Shown here: positions 660 through 49,064 of the stretch, in pieces
How positions within the stretch are numbered: position 1 is the first letter of the stretch
How the letters are laid out: every line of letters starts with the position of its first letter
Assembly (NCBI RefSeq): GCF_004010195.1
Contig: NC_057718.1
Location: 64,083,110 to 64,147,109, forward strand
DNA from: Chiloscyllium plagiosum
Lineage: Eukaryota
DNA: 64,000 bases
Reading direction: 5' to 3'
Notes under the pieces: model-generated
What the model saw: the letters and a program-made list of their open reading frames with translations, nothing else
What the model was told of the DNA's origin: nothing
Database searches by the model: none
Translations under genes and position numbers: made by a program

Positions 660-1120
660 ACAGATTTGGCTGATTGACAGAAGGCAGAGAGTAGGGGGTA
701 ATGGGGTCTGTTTCAGGTGGCAGCTTGTCATCACTGAAATTCACAAAGGTTGGTGCTGAGACTACAACTATTCATGTTATACATTAGTGATCTGAACAAA
801 GAAATTGAGGTCATTGTTGCTAAGTTTGCAGATGACATAGGTGAAGGAACAGATAGTATTGAGGAAACCTTGAGGCTGCAGAAGGATTTGGACATGCTAG
901 GAGAGTGGACAAAGAGTATTGCATCTGCCATTTATGTGAGAAAGTGAGGTTGTGCACTTTGGTAGGAAGAATAAAGACATAGACTATTTGCTAAATGGTG
1001 AAAGGCTTCAGAAATCTGCAGCACACAGGCACTTGGGGATCGTTGTTTAGGATTCTCTTAAGGTTAACATGCAAATTCAGTTGGCGGTTACACAGGGAAA
1101 TGTAGCATTAGCATTCATGT
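660..1120 (+). mobile_element. CR1 LINE reverse transcriptase fragment
   Basis: ORF 750-947 contains VAKFADD…LRLQKDLDMLGEW, the CR1 RT FADD motif. Confidence 0.85.
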
Positions 1121-1814
1121 TGATATGGGGGTGGGGAAGAGACAGCAGGCTAAGAAATAATTGGAGTGGCTGGAGATCTTTCTGAATAATATTACTGGCA
1201 TTGATCAGTTAGCATGACCTGATTTATGCTGCTACTTTTGTATTATGTTGACTTGAGCTGTGAAGAAGTCCCAGCATTCCAGTTTATTGCTTTATCATTT
1301 GCAAATTCAGATTGTGTCATGAGTGTAAATTTGCCTGGTAACTGTACTTGTGTTAAAGTTCTTTCAGTAATTGTGGGGACTTCTGTGATAGTAAATTAAA
1401 TTATGTGAGCATATAACATAACTTTTTCCAATACTCTGATAGTTAATTTTCTTTAGTATGTTGATATCAGTACTTGACGCACCCTGTGACTCTGGTAAAT
1501 AGAAAGTTGAAATGTACTGTACCTGTCTTTAGGGAGGATTTAAAAGATTGCATCCTGTACCTTCTTGCTCTTAGCTGTGGGACACTCCAGGGCCGAGATA
1601 TGATGGAGATTTCTTTGTGACACTTCATTGTTTATTCCTGCTCTTCCAATATTGGTCTCTTCAAGATGCTTAAAAATAAAGTCTGATTTTTAAAGCTAGG
1701 CAGCCATTTCAGCCAATAATTCTGACATACATTTCAATTCAAAAGGTTTACTGTAGAGCAGATTCATCCAACTAACTATTCCAGCATCCTCCTTTCATAT
1801 ATTGTTTGTTATCA

Positions 1815-2035
1815 TTGAGTCATAGGGTTATACAGAAATTACCATTTGGTTCAACTCCTTCATCCTGACCAAGCATCCTAAACTGGTCTAGTCTTATTTG
1901 CTTGCATTTGGCTTATATACCTCTAAACCCTTCGTATTCATGTACCCATTCAAATGTGTTTTAAATGGTGTAATTGTACCTACCTTCACCACTTCCTCTG
2001 GCAGTTCGTTCCATACACGAACCACACTCTGCATA
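1815..2035 (-). mobile_element. CR1 LINE 3' fragment
   Basis: Reverse complement of the CR1 3' end seen at 1-352 and 60145-60620. Confidence 0.75.
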
Positions 2036-2873
2036 CTGTTGTAAAAATTTCTGATGTGAGTGACAACAGGCAAATCGGTAACTTATTTTCCATCTCTGAG
2101 AGGGTGCCTTTTCTGGCAAATTTAAATATATGACTGGCTTTTGGCGAACTTACTGGATACTAAGCCAATAAAAGATTGTGGGACTGGAGTTTGGTATAAA
2201 CCATGTGAATTTATTGAGTTAAATTTTCCAACAAATAGTTATGCTACCAGTCTGGTACATTGTCTTCCCCTTGCGTGATTGCAGATGAAACATCACCAAA
2301 AGCATTGAATGTGCTTATTTTCTATTTTTGGGAATGATAAAGCAACTCGAATACAGTATGGATGAAAATTTGAAATGAACTTTCAAGTATTCTATTGAGT
2401 TGCTGACCTCTGGGTTTTGCTTGCAAAATTAACTTTTTTTAAAAAGGCAATAAACAACTGAGAACTGTCCATTGTGCAGCGTAGTAGTTTTAATGTGGAC
2501 CATGAAGTTAAATTTTACCAACCATACTTTCGGAGATCTGGTAGTGCAGTGGTAGTATCCCTGCCTCTGAGTCAGCAACTCTAGGTTCTAGGCCCATTTT
2601 AAGACTTGACCACAAACAGCATTTGTGGATATGGCCAAACAGGTTGGCTCCTTCCAACACACCTTTGGAGGATGTTAAGAGCTGGAAGGTCTCCTGGTGT
2701 GCTGGAACCTGCAGCCAGCAATGGAATACTAGGTAGCATTTTGCTATGCACAACCACAGACCAATGTATGAATATCCATGGTCGTCACCAATGTCCTCTT
2801 GTGCATGGTACCTGGACAGTGCTAGTTACACAGTGGATAGTTATTAACAAATTTGACTTTTTTTAAAATACAG

Positions 2874-2948
2874 CATGAATTGGTGAATTTGCAGCAAATG
2901 AACTTATCACTTCAAGCTGTCCTTCAAATGGTTGTCTCCTTCAACAAG
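2874..2948 (+). CDS. Internal coding exon (phase 0/0) of an unidentified + strand gene: HELVNLQQMNLSLQAVLQMVVSFNK
   Basis: T-rich tract and tacag acceptor, AAG|gtacgt donor, 75 nt open frame in non-repetitive DNA, phase-compatible with the next two exons. Confidence 0.75.
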
Positions 2949-3186
2949 GTACGTCATTGTTTTAAGGAACTGAACAATGTAAAAAATTCCTTAAATCTGC
3001 TAAATCTTGGAATCCATAATTTAATGGGTTTTTTGTTTGACTTTTGAATATGTTAGTTACCTAGTATAAACTGTATGGCAGACTCATCTGTGTAAACCTA
3101 ATGATCCAAGTTTTCTGATTAATCAGGTGGAGGGTAACTGATTTAAAATGCATGGAGTACTGTGGGCAATATGATAGAAAATCATC

Positions 3187-3395
3187 CCTGATGAAGGGAT
3201 CATGCTCGAAACGTCAATACTCCTGCTCCTCGGATGCTGCCTGACCTACTGCGCTTTGGCAGCAACACACTCGATTCTGAAACCAAAAGAGAAAATGCTG
3301 GAGAATCTCAGCAGGTCTGACAGCATCTGTAATGAGAGAAAAGAGTTGACGTTTTGAGTCTAACTGATCCTCGATTCTGATCTCCAGTATCTGCA
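3187..3395. mobile_element. Penelope-like terminal-repeat fragments with a minimal hammerhead core (3188-3215, + strand)
   Basis: CTGATGA-agggatcatgctc-GAAA-CGTC followed by …gatgctgcctgacc…, shared with the ends of the element at 9770-13225. Confidence 0.7.
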
Positions 3396-4172
3396 CTTTC
3401 TCCCTCCTGATAGAAAACTGCAGCCAATTTATCTAGATTATACATTTCAGTTATCGCTAGACAACCCAATTCTACCCTTGTTTCTTTTCTCCACAGAGTC
3501 AAATTGTGAACAGTTGTCGACGACAATAACCACCCTTTTTAGTTATAATCAGCATTCCTTAAAGTGAATCCAGTCTATTTCCTTGTACGACAAATCAGTA
3601 TGATGTCTATAAATTGTCAGCATGTTACAAATATTGAAATGGCAGGATGGAAAACAAGCCATTTTTTTTTAAGACTAATTATTTTAAGTCTCTATTTCCC
3701 CATCTCCTTCAGGACAATTAAGGGAGGACAGTAAATGCCGCTTTTGTCATCAGTGCCCACATTTTCCTTTCTTTTTTAAAAAGAAATCTGCAACTCTGTT
3801 GTTCCAGACTACTTTTTGGATTCTTTAGATGGAAATATGGAATTTGTAAAACATAAAGCCACAATTTTTCACCACATTTTAATAATCTATATGATGTGGA
3901 CAGCAAAAGAAGAATGATCTTTCTTGTGCTTTAAAGCTATGTATAATTTCACCTCATGCAAATCAAACAATAAGTCAATTCAGAAAGAAGCTAACTCTTA
4001 TTAAAATTCATGAGAACCGTTGTGGCTCTATCCTCATTTTTCTCAGTTGGGCTCTATCAGTGCTAAATGAGATTTGTGATGGTTCATTGATAACACTATG
4101 ACTACCTTTTTATCTCATCTGAGAAATTATGGTTGGTTTCTGCATAGGTTCATTTTACCTTCTTATCAACAT

Positions 4173-4485
4173 TGTTATGGACTGGGCCAGACCTCTCAAC
4201 ATTTTAAGAAGGTAGCCTAGATCCTAACTTTTCTAGTTGCTTTAAGCAGATGCAAGGTGAATATTCCAGGAGCGATGCAGCTGGTCAAACCACTGTTTTA
4301 AACAAAACAATTTGTTTACACACTAACAAAAGAAAACCAAATTTAGAATAACATAACTATTTGAAAACCCAACCAACACAAAAACACAACTTAACAAAGC
4401 TGTTCCGAATTCCTGCAACATCCCATAAACACACCCCTTGGCAAAAATGTAAATTCAAACACAGGTTTTTACAGAAGGAGGTGTC

Positions 4486-4516
<31 letters not shown>

Positions 4517-4837
4517 AAGCGAGGATCAGCATGGAGCTGTTTCTGAGTCCCCAGCTAAAACTAACCCAAAATTAGAAAAAATCCTGAACTTTTGAGAACT
4601 GGCTTCTCCCCTTTCATTTTACAAGTGTTTTTTAAAACCTCAAAGCCTTCTCTGATTCGCTAACAGATGCTGCCTAAGTCAACATTGTTAAAGTAGCCAG
4701 TTCAGACATTTCAGCACCTCTGCCTTGACCCCTTTTTTTTGGGTGGAGGGGAGGGGAGGGGAGGGGAGGGGAGGGGAGGGGAAAGGGGAAAAGCCAAGGA
4801 CAGAAAAAACCCTTGTTAAAAAAGCAGCATCATCACA
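4173..4837. mobile_element. Solo LTR, probably Gypsy-type
   Basis: Starts TGTTATG and ends CATCACA (imperfect inverted termini); flanked by a 4-bp direct repeat ACAT (4169-4172 and 4838-4841); contains (GA)n and (GGAGG)n tracts. Confidence 0.7.
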
Positions 4838-4967
4838 ACATGCATGTCTTGCTTTGTTGTTTGGGTCTTTCCTAGTGACTGTTCTTGTGTAAAATCCAAA
4901 AGATGAGTTTTTTTTCAGTTATTGTAAATTGTAGATAATTGTATTCAAATTAATTATTTTATTTCAG

Positions 4968-5007
4968 ATTATTGAGGAGGTCAGCCAGAACACTCATCAC
5001 CTCACAG
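4968..5007 (+). CDS. 40-nt coding exon (phase 0/1) of the + strand gene: IIEEVSQNTHHLT
   Basis: ttttatttcag acceptor, CAG|gttagt donor, joins the flanking exons in frame. Confidence 0.7.
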
Positions 5008-5296
5008 GTTAGTGCTAAGTAATGCATCACTGTTGTAGTCACATACAATTGGTTACCCCTTCTGTTCTGCCACTGGCTTAATGATAATGGCCCAGAAATT
5101 CTGATCAGGATGGGAAACCCTATTTCTTACCCTGAGCAGATTTATAAAGAAAAATCCACGTATCTTTTAATGATATCTGTGTTTTAGATTCCTGGAGAGG
5201 GGCCACCTGTTTGAACCTGTTCACAAATTCCTGCATCCAGCAGCATAGAAAATCATTGTAAAAACCATATCCACTTTCACAGCATTAGGTACAGTA

Positions 5297-6312
5297 CAGA
5301 GGAACCTCTATTATCCGAACAAGATGGAGGACACTATTTCATTCGGATAATTGATTATTCTGTTAACTGATTCAATGCCTTTCCTCTGGAGGTCGGAGGC
5401 TTCTGTTAAGTCTGCTCCCTGTTCAGGAGAGGAGGCAGCAGCACACTGTGCGTGAGCCCCTGCTGCCCCTCTTTCCCCCCTGCCCGCCACCACCTGCCCT
5501 CTCCAACATCGTCCACGCCCACCCCTACACCTGTCCCCACCAACCCCCTTCAACACTGCCCCCCCCCCACCCCCAACCCTCGGNNNNNNNNNNNNNNNNN
5601 NNNNNNNNNNNNNNNNNNNNNNNNNNNNNNNNNNNNNNNNNNNNNNNNNNNNNNNNNNNNNNNNNNNNNNNNNNNNNNNNNNNNNNNNNNNNNNNNNNNN
5701 NNNNNNNNNNNNNNNNNNNNNNNNNNNNNNNNNNNNNNNNNNNNNNNNNNNNNNNNNNNNNNNNNNNNNNNNNNNNNNNNNNCCAGCCCAACCTCTGCCA
5801 ACATGCCAACGCTGGCTGCCCCCCTTTTCCCCCCTCCCCCAACCTCGTTCAACACTGTACCCTCTCCAGAGCAGCCAGACTGGACACCCAACAACAAGAC
5901 TGCTGCTGTTGCTTTTGGGGTGTGAGTCTCCTCATAGCACGCATGTAGACACAACTTTTTACTGCAACATTTTGACAAGTTCCACCTTTACCCCGGACAG
6001 GACAATGTTGGAGAGATTATCTGGAGAAGGGGGGTTTAGGGTATACCCCTGTGTAGAACTCCAGGGAAAGTGTGTAGGGAGAGAGAGGGCGGAAGATCAG
6101 CCATTTGAGGATGGTGCCTGGGCTCCCATCAGTCCAGGACTGTTCTTGGCAACATTTCAGTAAGCCGGGTTCACTTTTAATCACTGTAAACAAAAGGCGC
6201 GATCAGTGTTGGAAATGTGTCTTTGATGTAATACTTCTATCGGGACCTCGAGATCTCCTTCGGATAATCCGATATCTGAATATCAGTTATCTAAATAATT
6301 GAGGTTCCTCTG
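5297..6312 (+). mobile_element. Non-autonomous Tc1/mariner (Tigger/pogo-like) TIR element
   Basis: TA|CAGAGGAACCTCTATTATCCGAA left end and …ATAATTGAGGTTCCTCTG right end; C-rich interior contains an assembly gap. Confidence 0.75.
5584..5782. other. Assembly gap
   Basis: Run of N. Confidence 1.
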
Positions 6313-7071
6313 GTATTCTGTTCAGACACTTCATGAAAGACAACTGTGAAAAGGTCTTATGGCAGTGGGATTAAGGTGTCTGGTAGGGTGGAGGATGGAG
6401 TTTGGGATATCAAATGGGCAGTGTGTCAGGGAAGTGGATCATGTCTGGTCCAAAGGCGTGAGATTTTTGAAATGCTGTTAGTGTCTTTTACTGTGAAGAG
6501 TGATGAAAAGTAATTATTCAACACTGTCTTATCCAGCTACCCCCAGTGATATTCCCTTGGCCTCATTCTCTAAAAGGTCTATGTTCACTTTGGTTTCTCT
6601 CTTTCTTTCTTTTTATATATTTAAAGATGGGAGGGGTGGGGTGGTGGTGTGTCTGGGATTCAGTTTAATAGTGGCCCAGGAGTAAGAGCAGTGTTTTAAT
6701 CCTTTAACATTTTCTGGGCCATTATTGAGCTTAATGGAATCCGAACCTTCCAAACTCTCCAATTTTAAAGGGCTGTTTCAGAGGGTTCCTGTTGCAAGGA
6801 ATTGCCAATTAGAATTTTTAATTTCCTGGGTAATTCCCCTATAGTCAGCTGCATAGCTACTTCTGCATTGTCCTGATGCACAACTCCAATCTATCCTACT
6901 GCAATGACGTTTTGGCAAAGGCTCACTGCCATGAAAGTAGAGTTCATTATTTTCAGTGATCTAAAAATTGAGGCAGAAGTTATGTTTATATGTTATGACA
7001 TAAGTGTATAGTAAATGATGGCAGAAGTATCTCATATAATTTATGGTTGCAATTTATTAACTTTTGTGTAG

Positions 7072-7115
7072 AGCTCAATGGAGGATGGTCGACTTTCTTC
7101 AGGGCGCAGAAGTGA
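7072..7115 (+). CDS. Terminal coding exon of the + strand gene: (E)LNGGWSTFFRAQK*
   Basis: cttttgtgtag acceptor; phase 1 completes the G|AG codon from the previous exon; TGA at 7113-7115; AT-rich 3' UTR follows. Confidence 0.7.
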
Positions 7116-7400
7116 TCAAGAATACAAAACAATACTGAAGTCTAAAATTCTGATGCTTGGATGGGGTAATATTATCCTCTGGATAAAATGGAACTGCTGA
7201 GATATTTATATTCTGTAGTTACATATTTTTAAAAAGACCCTGCTGCATTTTGATATAATGCATTGTAATATTATTGCCAATCTGATATTTGCTTACATGA
7301 TGTCAATATACAACTTGAGCTTGGAATATATTTAAGAGCTAGATTGTGTTACACTGATTTTATACTCATTTGCATCTTGGCTTGTCATTTCAAAGTCTAA

Positions 7401-7515
7401 AATAAAATAGAACTGATTACATCTCCTAACGCTGTATAAACTAAAGATGTACCTATTTTATTTGGCAAAGTACTTTTCGCATTTTCATTAAAAACCAGCA
7501 CACATTTATAATAAA
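7401..7515 (+). promoter_or_regulatory. Candidate polyadenylation signals for the + strand gene
   Basis: AATAAA at 7401-7406 and 7510-7515, downstream of the stop codon. Confidence 0.4.
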
Positions 7516-7727
7516 TAGGTAAACATGTAAATTACTAATTGAAGTTTTTGGAAGTGCGTGGATTTAAAGACTGTGTTGAAATAATGAGTTTGAGCTATTA
7601 ACTGAGTCCAGAATGAGTAAATTTATTGTCCTGCCCTTCAACTCAGTGAGCATAATGCATGGCTTAGAAAATATCTGGTTGAATATTTTTCTATCTTGTT
7701 TGATCATCAAAATAATTGCTGCTGTTC

Positions 7728-7829
7728 TTAAGCAATCTTCTGTGCTGAGAGTCTGTTCTGACCCGTTGGCTTCTCTGATATTTCTTTGTTTGCATAGTTT
7801 ATCCAAAGACTGCTGGGACGTTTGGCTTC
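7728..7829 (-). CDS. Terminal coding exon of the - strand gene: EAKRPSSLWINYANKEISEKPTGQNRLSAQKIA*
   Basis: ttttgtcttttag acceptor on - strand; phase 0 matches the preceding exon; TAA at 7730-7728; - strand AATAAA at 7622-7627 and 7457-7462. Confidence 0.6.
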   Translation of the reverse strand, partial: EAKRPSSLWINYANKEISEKPTGQNRLSAQKIA

Positions 7830-8955
7830 CTAAAAGACAAAATTATCGAAGGCAAACTTTACCAAATTTTTACTTGCTTTTATGTCACAATCTATAAGAA
7901 ATACAGACTGGTGAGGTAATTAAGAGTTCTCCTTTTATCTATAACCTGGTGAAATCCAGTTGACTATTCAGCACTAAAATATGGCCTAAGTGTATACATC
8001 AAATAACCATCCTGCTTGAGTTGTCTAATTATTCTCAGGCTTTTGTGTTTTGGAACGGGGATTTCAGAGAGCAGTGCCAATGCTTCAGTGCTTCATTTTT
8101 TGTTTGTAGTCTGTTAATAGTTACTACCACAATCTGTTGGAGGACTAAGTTTTCTTTGAGAGTTGAATCAGTCCTGGTATGGAATTCATATCCTTTTTAG
8201 TATTAGTATTGCTGAAAATAGGAATACTAAATTTGAAACAGTATGTTATCATGGTAAAAGCACTATGATTTTTCCACTATATTGAGTTTACTATAATGAA
8301 CATTAGGTTTTCAAGCTGATGCATGAAACCTAAAGGTTTATCACCACAGGATAAACGTAGGGGATAAATGTACTGCTAAGTTACATGAAGTAAGCTGAGG
8401 CATAAGACAGTACTGGCATTTGCTTTGGAGCAGACTACTTAAATTAGGAGTGCATAAAGGTGCAATGTGTTATAGCTAATAACCCAAGTACGTATTGCTT
8501 CTGGGTTCATGCAGCAAGCAATTTCGGAAAACTACATGAAGCCACCTTTGAATAAGGATTCGACCCATTGATGATGTAATGAATAAATTACAACTTCATT
8601 TGCAACACATTCCAAGCAAGTTAGTTTTACAAATTAATGAGAAATGATGGAATATAATTGCAAGAATTTGTTCTAACCAATTTTTTCCACAAAAGGTAGC
8701 TTTATTTTAATGCCAAACTTCATGTCAGAGCTTCTCCAAGTGATATGCACCGAGCTGTATCTGTGCCACTTGTAAATATTATCTAACAAAAGCTCATATC
8801 TAACATATGTAACCTAAAAGATTAAGTATTGTTGAGAAAATTATGTATAAATACAAAGTAAAATGCCATTTGTTAATCATCTAATACTCTTTATTGGTAG
8901 TCCACATAATTCTCTCCACTGCTTATTTATAAGCACTGCAACCAAATACACTCAC

Positions 8956-18200: not shown

Positions 18201-19254
18201 CTAGAACAATAGTTGGCAGTATAGAACTTAACTATTGCTGGAAAGTGACATATCACATCTTAATCTTATTGAGATAAATGCACTAATGTTAAATTCAAAT
18301 TGTCACATTAATTTGCAACAGCAACCTCATGCCGGTGTGATGCTGTGTACGGAGGCTAGATGCCACAAAAGTTGTCTGATTGCATAAACATTGTGTGTCT
18401 TTGGTTGTTAGTAATAAATGTAGGTGGAGGGAAGGGGTCAGTTTTGCTTTTTCAAAAATATACTTTATTCATAGAAATCTTTGATATCTGTATAGTTGAT
18501 GATGCCATTCAGATGTATACTGTCTTTACATTCAGATATAGACTGAGTCATTGGTTTTTACAATTCTGTACATTAAACCATCAGCCTCTTGGCATTTAGC
18601 TGAGCCATCAGCAGAGCCTAATTCCTGATGGTTCCCCCCTGTTATTCTTTGGCAGAAGGACTTTACACAGTGATCTTTCCCCAACACGCCTTGGCGGCAG
18701 CTGCCCCAAGTTTTAGCGCATCCCTCAGCACAAAGTCCTGGACCTTGGAATGTGCCAGTCTGCAACACTCAGTCGGGGTCAACTCCTTCAGCTGAAAGAC
18801 CAACAGGTTTCAGGCAGACCAAAGAGTGTCTTTCACCGAGTTGTCTCAGCCAGCATCCCGGGGAACAGACTGTCAAGCACTGAGTCCTGCGTCAGGGAGC
18901 TGCTCAGGACAAACCTTGACAAATACCACTGCATTTCCAGACTTCCTTTACATAGGCACATTCCAGAAGGAGGTGTGTGACAGTCTCATCCCCTTCACAG
19001 CCACTTCGAGGGCAGTGTGCTGTGGTGCAGAGAGTCTGGGCACGCATAAAGGATCTCACAGGCAGAGCCCTTCTCACCACCAGCCAAGCCATGTCCTGGT
19101 GCTTATTTGAAAGTTCTAGCGATGAGGCATTCTGCCAAATGACTTTGACAGTCTGCTCAGGGAACCGCTCGATAGAATCCGCCCTCTCCTGTTCCCGAAG
19201 GGTCTCAAGGACACCACGTGCTGACCACTTCCTGATGGACTTGTGGTCAAAGGT

Positions 19255-19563
19255 TTAGATTAGATTAGATGACTTTATAGTGTGGAAACAGGCCCTTCGG
19301 CCCAACAAGTTCACACCGACCCGCCAAAGCGCACCCATCCAGACCCATTCCCCTACATTTATCCTGCACCTAACACTACAGGCAATTTAGCTTGGCCAAT
19401 TCACCTAACCTGCACATTTTTCGACTGTGGGAGGAAACCGGAGCACCCAGAGGAAACCCACGCAGACAGGGGAGAATGTGCAAACTCCACACAGTCAGTC
19501 GCCTGAGTCGGGAATTGAACCGTGTGAGGCAGCAGTGCTAACCACTGTGCCACCGTGCCGCCC
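19255..19563 (-). mobile_element. HE1-type tRNA-derived SINE nested in the Tx1 element
   Basis: GGCGGCACGGTGGCACAGTGGTTAGCACTGCTGCCTCAC head, TGTGTGGAGTTTGCAC core, (ATCTA)n tail. Confidence 0.9.
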
Positions 19564-19750
19564 ATAAACCTCTCCACGAAGGACAGGTGATACGGAACGG
19601 ACCAACTACTCAGAGCGTTTCGCGGTAGCGAGGCCAGGCCCATCCTTTGCAACACCAGGGACAGGTAGAACCTCAGTACATAGTGACACTTGGTGTTTGC
19701 ATACTGGAGATTCACGCACAGCTTGATGCAGCCACACACAAAGGTGGCCA

Positions 19751-20890
19751 TCAGGGTGAGGGTGGCATTGGGTGTATTTTTTCCCCATTGCCTAGATGTT
19801 TATACAGCGAGTCCCTTCGGACCCGGTCCATCTTTGATCTCCATATAAATTGGAAGATGGTCCAGGTGACTGCAGCGGCACAGGTTCTGGGAATAGGCCA
19901 GACCTGAGCCACGTATAACAGCAATGACAGAGCCTCACACCTGATGATTAGGGTTTTTCCCGTGATGGAGAGCAACCGTAGCTTCCATCTGCCCAGTTTC
20001 TGCCTCGCTTTGCTGGTACGCTCCTCCCAAGACTTGGCGCACGCCCCAACCAGCCCGAACCAAATACCCAGCACATTCAGATGGTCGGTCCTGACGGTGA
20101 AGGGGATCGAGGATTGGTCGGCCCAGTTCCTGAAGAGCACGGCCTCACTCTTGCCTCGGTTTACCTTGGCCCTCGAGGCCCGTTCGAACTGGTCACATAT
20201 GCACATGAGTCTGCGCACGGACAGCGGATCCGAGCAGAAAACGGCGACATCATCCATGTACAGGGAGGCCTTAACCTGCACGCCCCCGCTGCCAGGAATA
20301 GTCACCCCTCTCAGGCTCGCATCCTTCCTGATGGACTCGGCAAATGGCTCTATGCAGCACACAAACAAGGCAGAAGAGAGAAGGCAGCCCTGCCTGACTC
20401 CAGATCTGACTGGGAAGCTATCTGATTTCCACCCATTGATTGAGATTGCACTGACAATGTTGGTGTAGAGCAGTCTGATCCAATTGCAGACTCCCTCCCC
20501 AAAGCTCAGTTTGGAGAGAACATCTCTCATATACCTGTGTGATATCCTGTCAAAGGCTTTCTCCTGGTCCAGGCTGATCAGGCAGGTGTCCAACCCTCTG
20601 TCCTGCACGTAGGCGATCGAATCCCTGAGGAGTGCGAGACTCTCAGCGATCTTCCTGCACGGTACAGCACAGGTTTGGTCAGGGTGAATCACCGACCCCA
20701 GAGAAGACCTGACCCGGTTGGCGATTACCTTTGACAGAATTTTGTAATCCGCATTCAACAGTGAGATTGGTCTCCAATTTCTGATTTCCTCCCTCTCCCC
20801 CTTCCGCCTGTAGATGAGGGTGATGATGCCTTTCCTCATGGATTCACTCATGGTACCTGACCGAAGCACACTGACATACACCTCCAGCAA
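19751..20890 (-). pseudogene. Tx1-like ORF2 reverse transcriptase, disrupted
   Basis: 379-aa open frame containing the RT motifs; frameshifts on both sides. Confidence 0.85.
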
Positions 20891-21145
20891 GTCCCACAGA
20901 GCAGAATAGAGCTCAACCGGTAGGCCGTCGCTTCCGGGAGTTTCATTTTTTTGAAGGACTCAAGGGCCTTGGTCAGCTTGTCCAGAGATAGCGGCTGGTC
21001 CAGCCTCTCTCGTGTTCTGTCGTCTAGACCTCCTGTGATAGATGACAGGAACGACTGGGAGGTCGCGCTGTCGGTCGGCTTCGCGTCATACAGACAGGCA
21101 TAGAAGGACTTGCTGATCCTCATGACGTCAGCCTGAGATGACGTT

Positions 21146-21237
21146 NNNNNNNNNNNNNNNNNNNNNNNNNNNNNNNNNNNNNNNNNNNNNNNNNNNNNNN
21201 NNNNNNNNNNNNNNNNNNNNNNNNNNNNNNNNNNNNN
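21146..21237. other. Assembly gap, flanked by a near-duplicate segment (about 20870-21145 and 21238-21527)
   Basis: Run of N; the same Tx1 sequence lies on both sides. Confidence 0.95.
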
Positions 21238-22153
21238 ACTGACATACACCTCCAGCAGGTCCTGGCCAATCAAGTCCCACAGAGCAGAATAGAGCTCAAC
21301 CGGTAGGCCGTCGCTTCCGGGAGTTTCATTTTTTCGAAGGACTCAAGGGCTTTGGTCAGCTTGTCCAGAGATAGCGGCTGGTCCAGCCTCTCTCATGTTC
21401 TGTCGTCTAGACCTCCTGTGATAGATGACAGGAACGACTGGGAGGTCGCGCTGTCGGTCGGCTTCGCGTCATACAGACAGGCATAGAAGGACTTGCTGAT
21501 CCTCATGACGTCAGCCTGAGATGATGTTAGCGAGCTATCTTCTTCCTTCAGGCTGCTGAGCATGCAGCTCTCTTTGTGCACCTTCTGGAAGAAGAAACGT
21601 GAGCATGTCTCGTCCTGCTCCACCGAGCAGACCCTGGACCGGAAGATTATCTTGGAGGTCTCCGAGGCAAAGAGCGAAGCTTGCTGGCCCTTCACCTCCT
21701 TGAGGTCCTCCGTGACATCGACCCCCATCATCTGCAGCAGGAGCAGGTTCGGCATACTTTCCTGGAGTTGGGACAGTTTTTCCTGCCTCTCTCTCGCCTC
21801 CTGAACACCTTTGAGGATGAAGAACCTCTTGATGTTCCCTTTTACTGTTTCCCACCAGTCCGCTGGGGACTCAGAGGGGCTTCACGGTTCTCCAACCTGC
21901 GTAGTCCCTCTTGAGCTCCTCAATGTTTCCCAGGGTCAACAGCTTTGTGTTTAGCTTCCATGTTCCCTTACCAGCCCGCTGCTCGTCCTGTAGGTGACAG
22001 TCGGCCAGCAGGAGGCAGTGGTCAGAGAAGAACACCAACTTGACTCCACTCTGAAGCCATTTCCCTGCTCTGGTGTCTTCGGGTCGGGCCCATGGTCCGC
22101 ATAGTCCAGTTCTCCATCTGACAGCGGGGCTGTCACAGGACCGCTGCTCCTAG

Positions 22154-23044
22154 TTACCTGGAGCTGTGGGCCAGTGGGTACCTCTTGGTTCTCACCGGGT
22201 GGGGGGAGGCCTTTACCCATCCCCTCAGAGGGATCGTCTTTTCCTGCTTGGGTGGTGCTGCCCTCCTTTTTCCCCGCGGCGCTCTGTCTCTTCCTCTGGT
22301 GACCACCCTCCTTGCGTCCGTCCTCACCGTCGGAAGAGCTGCCTGTATCCTCGTCGTGTAGGTGTCGCTTCCCCCTTCGCTGGGTGGCTTTGGGCGGTTT
22401 CCTCTTCCTGCTTTTGACAGTAATCCAATCCTCTGCCTCTTTTGATCCGTCCTCTTCCATTTCCTCCGTCTGTTTGCAGGAGCTTTGATCGGCTGCTGCA
22501 CCTCCCCGCTGTCTGCCGTCTGCTCCGCTACAGCCCGCCCTTCCTTCTGGTTGCCTCCAGACACCGTTCCCATGCTGTTTTGTGGTACCTTGCTGGTCTT
22601 AGGCGATCCACGGCTCGTGTTGCCACCTCCGGCCATCTGTGCGTAGGTGGCGGCCCCTCGTCTTGGGCAGGCCTTGTACATGTGGCCCGCCTCTCCGCAC
22701 AGATTACAGTTCTTGGCCTTCTGACATTCCTTGGTCGGGTGGCCTTCCTGCTTGCAGTTTCGGCAGACGGTCACCTTACAATCCGCCGCCATGTGGCCTG
22801 ACCTCCCGCAGGTTCGGCACACTTTTGGCTGCCCTGCGTATGTCAGGTAACCACTGCTTCCTCCGATGGCAAAGCTGGTGGGTGGGTGGAGGATGTTCCC
22901 ACTGGCGTCGACCCTCAGGGTTACCCTGACCTGTCGTTTGCTGGTCCAGATCCCGAAAGGATTGACCACATCGGTACTCTCTCCCTCGACCTGGACGTAT
23001 CTTCTCAAGAAGGTCAGGATATCTGCTGCTGGGACGTGAGGGTT
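22154..23044 (-). pseudogene. Tx1-like ORF1 (zinc-knuckle protein of the ZCCHC3-like type), partial
   Basis: CRTCGRSGHMAADC, CRNCKQEGHPTKEC and CNLCGEAGHMYKAC, preceded by GIWTSKRQV and LTYAGQPKVC. Confidence 0.85.
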
Positions 23045-23753
23045 TACTTGTGTGCTAGTCCAAACCTAAGATTCATAAACTTAACATTAACTAATAAAGC
23101 GAAGACATGGCTAGAAGAGACTTTATACTTCGACAATGTTGAGAACATGAATGTTGGCATCAAATGGAGAAGTTGAAGTAAGTAATAAGTACACAAGGAA
23201 GAAAGGAACAAATGGAGACTTGGATGAGTTAGGTGGGAGGAAGGTCATGTGGAGCTTGGGCCAGTTGGATGGAGTGACTGGTTTCTTTGCTGTACATTGT
23301 GCATTTTTTTCAAAATTTGACTTCTGTTTTGTATTAAAGCTCAAATGGACAAAATTACTACCAATGAATGTATAATATCACTGCACATCGAATAATGTTC
23401 AGTCCACACAAAGTTAGGGAAAGCTCAATGTTGTTGTACAATTCTTTTACATTCATAGTCTAGTCGTCCTTAATCTTTAACATGTATTAAAGGAACTAAG
23501 ATGCAGAAAGAATGAACTAATTCCCAATAATTTACATGAAAGTTTGCGTATTTGTCGTCTTGTGTAACACATGATATAAATAACCTACATAGGACTGTTG
23601 GATGTGGTTAACACTATTGTTCACATATATGTTTCAGTAATGGCACTGTTAGCAATGACATTTATGTTACATTAAGTAATTTGTGTGTCTGGGTGCTGTG
23701 GGTACGGGTCCTGAAAAGGTAAACAGTATAATGTAAGCGGTTTGATTACTTAC

Positions 23754-47276: not shown

Positions 47277-49064
47277 CTTGCACAAGAGACATACGAAAAA
47301 TGAAGGATATTTTATGGCCCAAAACGTTTACATAACATTGACAATTACTTGACTACATATGGTAAATGGACTGGCTGCCATGGTTCCCAATGCAAAGGAC
47401 TGGATTTAATTCCACCCTGAATGTGAGAAACTAGTCATGAAAGGTCAGATTCAAATGACAGGTTCTTGGCTCCAGAAACTTCCAATCAGAAAAGGGTTTT
47501 TTAAAGCTGCCAGACACTCGGCTGGCTGATTCAAAAGCACCTTGGCACCTGCTAAATTGTATTGATTATAAAGGGTTGGGCTATAATTCCACTGATGTGT
47601 TACTTAATTTACAGTCATTCTGATCAAAGAACCTCATAACCAATTCAGATGCATATTTACTCACAATCTGCATGCAATCAGCCTACACAACCCATTTGGT
47701 TATCTCTGGTTTATAATATAACTTTTGACACCATCATGTAAGGTCTGCTGCTAGATTGCTGAATGGAACATAAAATTAGTACAGTCATATAAATGTCCTG
47801 TACTGTTACCACAGAACAGGCTGGTGTTTGTGTTTTATATGCATAAACTGGAGTCCACCTTCAGTAAGAATATTGCCCAATATCCAAATTGAGAATCTGG
47901 TGTGAATCATGACTTCTGACAATAAATGTGCATTCTGTTTCTCTCTCTGCAGTATTACTACCTCTCTTGCTTATTTTGTGTTTCATTAGGACCAACATAA
48001 ACAGCATTATTACTGGTAAAGACACAGAACTGACAAGAAAGATATGGCTGTCACCAAGCTGAAATAATCAACGCTCTCTTGCTTCTTGTTGAGGTGGTGA
48101 ATCATTTCAGTCACCTGCATACAACTTCCCCACTCAAGAAACAATTTATTGAATGAAAATGATGGTGGTGTGATTTAAAAACTCTTTCATAGCCTATGGT
48201 TTCCATGTTATGCTAATTTCTAGTCTTGAACAACCTTTGCACCACTGAGTTGAATTGCAACAATTTCACGATCTGTTCTGTGAGATATTGGGTTTTCTAC
48301 CTCTTCTGTTTTTGTTACAGCAAAAATAAGATGATTGAAGGTAGATCCCAACTATGTAGAGTTGTAAAATGAGTGATCATGAATCGACAGCCTGATTTAA
48401 ATTCCAGCCATTTTTATTTCCAGTAAGCTGGAATTCAAATTTCTAAAGCAATTTTGATGCTGTTGTGTGATGAAGATCCTGTGTAATATTTCCCACAGTT
48501 CCTGTGAGTTATATTTCCTTCATTTCTTTTAACTATTCTTTTTATTTGCAGTTTTTTGCTTTTTAAACAGGCAAGGAGAAAGTTTAAAGTAAGCTTTCAC
48601 AAATACAAATCTGTCAATTCTGCCTGGACTTCTGTGTGTTAGAAGTTTGGGAAATAATGTATGAATAATTTACAAAGGTTTCTGCATTTTACTGAGTAGT
48701 AGCAATAGCACAGTGTTGCTGATATTTATTGGCATAACTGTGGCTTTGTTAGCCAACACACGGAACAATGGTTTTATGCATATTGAAAAATATACCTGCA
48801 ACCTGAAAACAATGTCATATTGTTTTTGCTGCAAAGTACTGAGATATGGATTGCTTCCTAATGTGATGATGGTCTACCTGTGGAATAAACGATTCTAGCA
48901 CCAAGACAACTGTTTTCCTCCCAACTGGCTGAATCCATTACTTATCATAAACATGAGGCTGGAGTCAAGATGCTGCAAGGGGATGAGAGTGTCTTGGCCT
49001 TGCTTTTTGGGAAACTGCTTGTGTATCATGGATCTCAGTCTGAAAATATCACCACTGTAATATT

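Follow-up and report, generated by a model that had tools for sequence, protein, structure and literature searches.

The stretch of DNA analysed here, below called the window, comprises 64,000 nucleotides of the genome of the shark Chiloscyllium plagiosum (contig NC_057718.1; G000:C9:64083110-64147109). Its left part carries, on the forward strand, the last three exons of a small spliced gene whose 91-residue product is very probably kin to the Duo1 and Dad2 subunits of the fungal Dam1/DASH complex and to the moth kinetochore protein CS-3. These exons lie at positions 2874-2948, 4968-5007 and 7072-7115, have an AG acceptor or a GT donor at their splice sites, and are spliced in frame into the coding sequence of a 52-residue peptide, exactly as an earlier sequence-only reading of the window had proposed. 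Exon 2 with its flanks, used as a DNA query, returned a single genomic match. The same reading had judged that the N-terminal part of the protein probably lies to the left of the window, and one exon was indeed found there. Its coding part (G000:C9:64077471-64077587, equal to L002:4362-4478) runs for 117 nucleotides, or 39 codons, from an ATG to a GT donor, and is located in a CpG island about 5.6 kb left of the window. The first intron measures 8,395 nt, of which positions 1-2873 fall within the window. Exon 1 codes for an N-terminal stretch that is basic and poorly conserved, and for the beginning of a helix; exon 2 (75 nt, phase 0/0) encodes the first half of a conserved amphipathic helix with an invariant Glu41, exon 3 (40 nt, phase 0/1) its middle, and the coding portion of exon 4 (44 nt, stop codon included) its end, with the invariant residues Asn80, Gly82, Trp83, Phe86 and Phe87. 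The length of the third intron is approximate, since a run of N lies inside it. The full coding sequence is 276 nt long, and an in-frame stop codon precedes the ATG.

The gene is real and spliced. Both junctions within the window, which the sequence-only reading had proposed to confirm in RNA, were recovered as GT..AG joints in all four runs that were compared, among which X19 is recorded as RNA from a poly(A) library and X1, X3 and X6 (organisms A, B and C, respectively) are RNA by guess, the comparison having been made without a DNA control run. Junction 2948/4968 was spanned by one contig each in X1, X3 and X6 (depth 379, 42 and 6.5) and by one raw read in X19; for junction 5007/7072, X1, X3 and X6 again gave a contig apiece (depth 148, 17 and 6.5), and X19 gave six raw reads with six distinct starts. 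Exon 1 is covered by contigs from X2, X5 and X6. For its joint with exon 2, the evidence lies in the offsets of a single X6 contig (1002 nt, depth 6.46), which matches exon 1 with its bases 30-172 and the last exon with its bases 289-980; the gap between them fits the 75- and 40-nt exons exactly, from which the joint is inferred. The 3' untranslated region spans positions 7116-7830, with an approximate right end: contigs extend from 7070 to 7762-7830, poly(A) signals occur at 7401, 7487 and 7510, and the poly(A)-library reads of X19 concentrate near them, at 7201-7500 (mean depth 75.7).

Two further features of the transcripts were observed. An upstream open reading frame (ORF) of 13 codons at L002:4330-4371, in another frame and with two ATGs in weak context, overlaps the main start codon and could damp translation. 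In organism A, a 1855-nt contig (X1, X2) covering window positions 1045-2901 reads the first intron unspliced into exon 2, at a depth of 14 compared with 379 at the downstream spliced joint in X1; it represents either pre-mRNA or an alternative 5' end. A contig from X3 likewise carries about 1.3 kb ahead of exon 2.

A conserved family of short proteins

Relatives in Chiloscyllium punctatum (P0001, 91 aa), Scyliorhinus torazame and Hemitrygon akajei were retrieved with a query of 40 codons. Compared with P0001, the window protein has 4 substitutions among the 39 residues of exon 1 (35 being identical) and 0 among the 52 residues of exons 2-4 (Fisher p 0.03). In a phmmer search against 1.84 billion representative sequences, six matches reached E<=0.001; those bearing names belong to elasmobranchs, a sturgeon and a sea turtle; two Logan proteins among the six bear none. 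A profile search, in which the best 8,000 candidates were scored, added Macrochelys, Emydura and a Platysternon fragment, so that the members come from sharks, one ray, sturgeons and turtles. The matches with names included no mammal, bird, teleost, amphibian, invertebrate or fungus, the searches being too weak to show absence. The gene is conserved, and its sole existing name is the UniRef label 'DASH complex subunit DAD2' of two sturgeon proteins, which is taken to be automatic annotation; the other members carry no DASH name.

The conserved core comprises 51 residues (about 50 aa) that align without gaps; identical residues number 51/51 in the comparison with Chiloscyllium punctatum and 24-25/51 in those with sturgeons and turtles. 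The earlier observation that a tryptophan stands 42 residues after the glutamate holds in the window protein, in 11 of 11 relatives checked and, by gap-free alignment, in the CS-3 of Bombyx mori. In all 11 members the protein stops 8-15 residues after this tryptophan (8 in the window protein). The hydrophobic moment is maximal at 104 degrees (shuffle p 0.0085), as a coiled-coil helix would give, and this periodicity suggests that the core is a single helix. Ahead of it, the N-terminal stretch is poorly conserved and of variable length; in the shark its 37 residues have a net charge of +7.

Some database models depart from this pattern. P0003, P0006 and P0014 carry long N-terminal extensions, which were regarded as artefacts of annotation, since the short forms start where an internal methionine falls in the alignment. 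P0016 (Platysternon; 65 aa), which bears the name 'pleckstrin homology domain-containing family B member 2-like', opens with the middle of the family's helix and is probably a mis-joined gene model.

Resemblance to Duo1, Dad2 and CS-3

Vertebrates use the Ska complex and are not known to have Dam1/DASH, and the sequence-only reading had accordingly called a gene of this kind in a cartilaginous fish unexpected. For animals at large this surprise is lessened by a precedent, a Dam1-derived protein in moths (PMC13281801; preprint 10.1101/2025.07.14.664805). In that work, the moth proteins CS-1, CS-2, CS-3 and CS-4 are described as the counterparts of Dad3, Dad1, Duo1 and Dam1. Its main text contains none of the terms vertebrate, metazoa, shark and chordata. 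No report of a Dam1 subunit in vertebrates was found in a search by title and beginning of abstract, a coverage from which subscription papers mostly fall out.

The strongest evidence of kinship comes from profile searches against 177,635 PDB sequences. The best profile, A4, was built from seven short vertebrate members of the 16 family proteins collected, leaving aside long forms, near-duplicates, two turtle-like Logan forms whose N-terminus differs, and one fragment. Its top two matches were 9okl_C (E 1.2e-4) and 9okb_C, which is CS-3 (E 5.6e-4). The former (SFRICE_007223) is taken to be the CS-3 of Spodoptera from its tag, its likeness to 9okb_C and the account of Spodoptera proteins in the map given in PMC13281801. 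The alignments to the CS-3 chains are free of gaps over 54-56 positions, so that the similarity is significant across the whole helix, and the next match stands at E 0.14, with the Dad2 chain 8q84_K at E 0.21. A CS-3 chain came first in all four PDB searches, the first three of which were non-significant or borderline, with E falling from 1.2 for a single protein to 0.55 for three sequences and 0.017/0.036 for ten sequences with long extensions.

Two other lines point in the same direction. Single exons were too short for Pfam (0 matches for four segments); with whole members as queries, DASH_Duo1 was listed for nine of 11 and ranked first in four of 11 (E 0.002-0.15), and the shark protein P0001 aligned at equal length to positions 2-48 of that profile. 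In the ESM Atlas, shark and turtle queries shared their first match, a mostly arthropod cluster of 75-aa proteins with DASH_Duo1 on 20% of its members, at scores of 0.87 and 0.90 (185 and 204 of 256 features); Duo1 and Dad2 clusters came next. None of these searches gave a confident score to an unrelated vertebrate family.

Several results weigh against the kinship, and through it against a role modelled on CS-3. The significant PDB value arose from the fourth of four queries, and a fungal Duo1 chain is absent from the ten matches at E<=10 obtained with the seven-member profile. None of the 11 members reaches the DASH_Duo1 gathering threshold of 25.4 bits, the best scoring 18.3 bits. Of five control segments taken from the same genome, two that are unrelated coiled coils matched 32 and 28 Pfam families, some at similar E, and a TRIM coil reached DASH_Dad1 at E 0.0014, a segment that had itself been picked by the Dad1 search. 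By the tool's own rating, the ESM Atlas scores fall in the range of leads only. DASH_Duo1 was not among the top 25 families listed for each control segment. The Pfam check proposed in the sequence-only reading yielded a recurrent listing that stays below the cut-off and, taken alone, is no better than that of generic coiled coils, whereas the PDB profile beats other coiled coils by about 250- to 1000-fold in E and so answers the worry, raised at the outset, that the scores might be no better than theirs.

It could be supposed that the gene encodes an unrelated conserved vertebrate microprotein whose amphipathic helix has come to look like DASH by convergence. The match spans one helix of about 55 residues; the Pfam scores are sub-threshold and equalled by generic coils, two of the 11 members have no Duo1 match, and turtle members match many other coil families. 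Moreover, no named invertebrate or fungal sequence appeared at E<=0.001 in the search of 1.84 billion proteins, nor at E<=10 in the word-limited profile search. Against this stand the first rank of the CS-3 chains in every PDB search amid many coiled coils, with the 250- to 1000-fold gap at best; the agreement with CS-3 in size, Glu-to-Trp spacing and position of the C-terminus; and the language-model search, which indicates the same clan. The PDB, Pfam and ESM Atlas lines each draw on a single, shared helix and are only partly independent of one another. On balance, we consider convergence quite improbable and membership of the vertebrate protein in the Duo1/Dad2/CS-3 clan highly probable. 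The resemblance claimed in the sequence-only reading thus stands as to the clan, while the nearest relative proves to be moth CS-3 and not fungal Duo1 or Dad2. Within the clan, the affiliation may be with either Duo1 or Dad2: Duo1 stands above Dad2 in the ESM Atlas and in Pfam, except for one sturgeon protein; CS-3 is itself ambiguous, PSI-BLAST leading to Dad2 and HHpred and a tree to Duo1 (PMC13281801); and Duo1 and Dad2 are homologues of each other (PMC5439489).

A possible place at the kinetochore

The protein matches CS-3 in sequence, length and loss of the tail, and the simplest reading is that it does the same job, namely that it provides one helix of a scaffold in the CCAN, the constitutive centromere-associated network. 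We assign this reading a probability of roughly 45%; were the kinship granted, a kinetochore-scaffold role would be an even bet. In the silkmoth CCAN, CS-1 to CS-4 and the N-terminus of CENP-H form a five-helix bundle that recruits CENP-OP (PMC13281801). By analogy with the solved moth complex, the vertebrate helix would pack with partners derived from Dad1, Dam1 and Dad3, and a fifth helix, supplied in moths by the CENP-H N-terminus, would complete the bundle. Such a bundle, one arm of the DASH fold, would dock on the CCAN and help to hold CENP-OP. Everything in this scheme past the sequence match to CS-3 is what we infer from the moth.

The shark genome supplies two points that count against a direct transfer of the moth scheme. 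CENP-U was found as two collinear spliced exons (L048, L049 on G000:C2), while the moth module is proposed to stand in for lost CENP-QU; the absence of CENP-QU that forms the moth context is thus not shared by the shark. In addition, no partner gene was located, in genome searches that are blind to genes of this kind. Six-frame searches for Dad1, Dam1 and Dad3 gave noise only, and their blanks are uninformative, as a DASH_Duo1 control missed the present gene as well. SKA1 is also present, as two spliced exons (L036, L037 on G000:C1; E 1e-18 and 7e-16). Since sharks keep CENP-U and Ska, a CS-like module would serve as an accessory brace, or as one limited to certain cell types, and not as a replacement for CENP-QU. 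CENP-H is present in the genome, which speaks for the scaffold reading; its last exon and a likely penultimate exon were found, whereas the 5' exons encoding the N-terminal helix were not located in the upstream stretch, where a CpG-rich segment resembles a retrotransposon. CENP-Q was not located in the genome search, the matches being other coiled coils.

Candidates that were inspected and set aside are given here for completeness. Those Dad1, Dam1 and Dad3 matches that were inspected proved to be repeats, the TRIM coil, an unrelated exon or non-coding DNA; the best Dad1 candidate, L019, is interrupted by a stop within the match, has no good donor, and is backed only by a second match that is weak and of like character. 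For CENP-Q, one myosin-tail-like exon and one other coiled-coil exon were rejected. A search for paralogues with the turtle protein returned an apparently non-coding candidate at E 1.95, besides the present gene's own exon 2 at E 6.9.

The presence of both Ska and CENP-U, which leaves neither known kinetochore job vacant, also favours the idea that the protein is a true Duo1/CS-3 descendant acting off the mitotic kinetochore, where it would bundle with further helices, DASH-derived or unrelated, in germ-line or meiotic structures, in cilia or in trafficking. Elasmobranchs, sturgeons and turtles are the only groups from which members with names were obtained, suggesting that the gene may be dispensable, and non-kinetochore or meiosis-specific ancestral roles of the Dam1 complex have been discussed (PMC9998035). 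We nevertheless regard this as rather unlikely, as the sole animal relative with data is a CCAN subunit (PMC13281801), and spliced forms occur in runs of several studies and species.

The basic N-terminus raises a further option, in which a remnant of a Dam1-like coupler persists at the outer kinetochore beside Ska and binds Ndc80 or microtubules through partners or through this stretch, whose charge in the shark would suit such contacts. Yet the stretch is poorly conserved and variable in length, and the protein lacks a C-terminal tail, although it is the Dam1 and Duo1 tails that mediate microtubule binding (PMC13281801) and a Dad2 signature motif that is required for ring formation (PMC10551642). 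We give this option little credence.

Returning to the CS-like scaffold, a broader proposal is that jawed vertebrates retain a multi-subunit kinetochore module derived from Dam1/DASH, with a Duo1/CS-3-like, a Dad1-like and a Dam1/Hsk3-like component, beside Ska and CENP-QU; Hsk3 is a structural paralogue of Dam1 (PMC9998035). This proposal is possible, if doubtful. If it held, the moth CS module would date back to the bilaterian ancestor and not be an invention of holocentric insects, it would have been lost in some vertebrate lineages, and the accepted parts list of the vertebrate kinetochore would be incomplete outside mammals. That a CS-3-like gene is retained in sharks, rays, sturgeons and turtles, and in a genome with Ska1 and CENP-U, speaks for Dam1 parts having been inherited vertically through the animal ancestor, whereby their retention would be decoupled from holocentry and from the loss of CENP-QU. 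It also offers a concrete gene for studying Dam1 subunits where Ska is present.

As to the surroundings of the gene, the neighbour upstream (L003), which we take from its translation to be TBXT (brachyury), lies on the minus strand about 18 kb left of the window, head to head with the present gene and with 12.3 kb between the two start codons. No downstream neighbour was found in the window among the 66 long ORFs scanned of 97 listed; the clear matches of these ORFs were retrotransposon domains, and four others had single weak matches. A copy of a non-LTR (long terminal repeat) retrotransposon occupies positions 18907-23065 on the minus strand, with a zinc-knuckle ORF1, a reverse transcriptase and zf-RVT in several frames. 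An ORF at 48665-48895 on the plus strand has a sub-threshold Pfam match to TbpB_C (E 1.1e-4, 22.9 of 25 bits), which is probably due to chance.

Comparison with known systems

Among known proteins, moth CS-3 (9okb_C, 9okd, and 9okl_C taken as the Spodoptera orthologue) is the closest, being the best PDB match with identical Glu-to-Trp spacing. CS-3 has 71-72 aa compared with 77-102 aa in the short vertebrate forms, and ends nine residues past the tryptophan in B. mori (Trp63 of 72), against 8-15 in the vertebrate proteins; as judged from their sequences, the latter are likewise short proteins without a C-terminal tail. The vertebrate family differs in its hosts, which are jawed vertebrates, in the longer basic N-terminus of its shark members, and in that the shark keeps CENP-U and Ska1. 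Vertebrates also have CENP-A and single centromeres, unlike the moths in which CS-3 operates. The CS module has been proposed to compensate for missing CENP-C or CENP-QU, and the position of CENP-OP differs when CENP-QU is present (PMC13281801).

Fungal Duo1 (PF08651) provides the most recurrent Pfam match, but in the vertebrate protein both the microtubule-binding tail and the final third of the Pfam model are missing; the Duo1-type C-terminal extension, with its microtubule-binding and error-correction sites, is absent from all 11 members. Dad2 (PF08654; 8q84_K) is matched weakly, in the PDB as given above and in Pfam for one of 11 members (E 0.061), and the window protein, with its eight residues past the tryptophan, leaves no room for the C-terminal Dad2 signature. 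Dam1/DASH rings are built from a near-complete set of subunits on microtubules, usually in organisms without Ska. Since C-terminal parts required by the fungal ring are missing from the vertebrate protein, it is, by its anatomy, probably not a functional subunit of a fungal-type ring. In its missing tail it resembles the moth CS module, whose subunits are without microtubule-binding tails and which does not oligomerise (PMC13281801).

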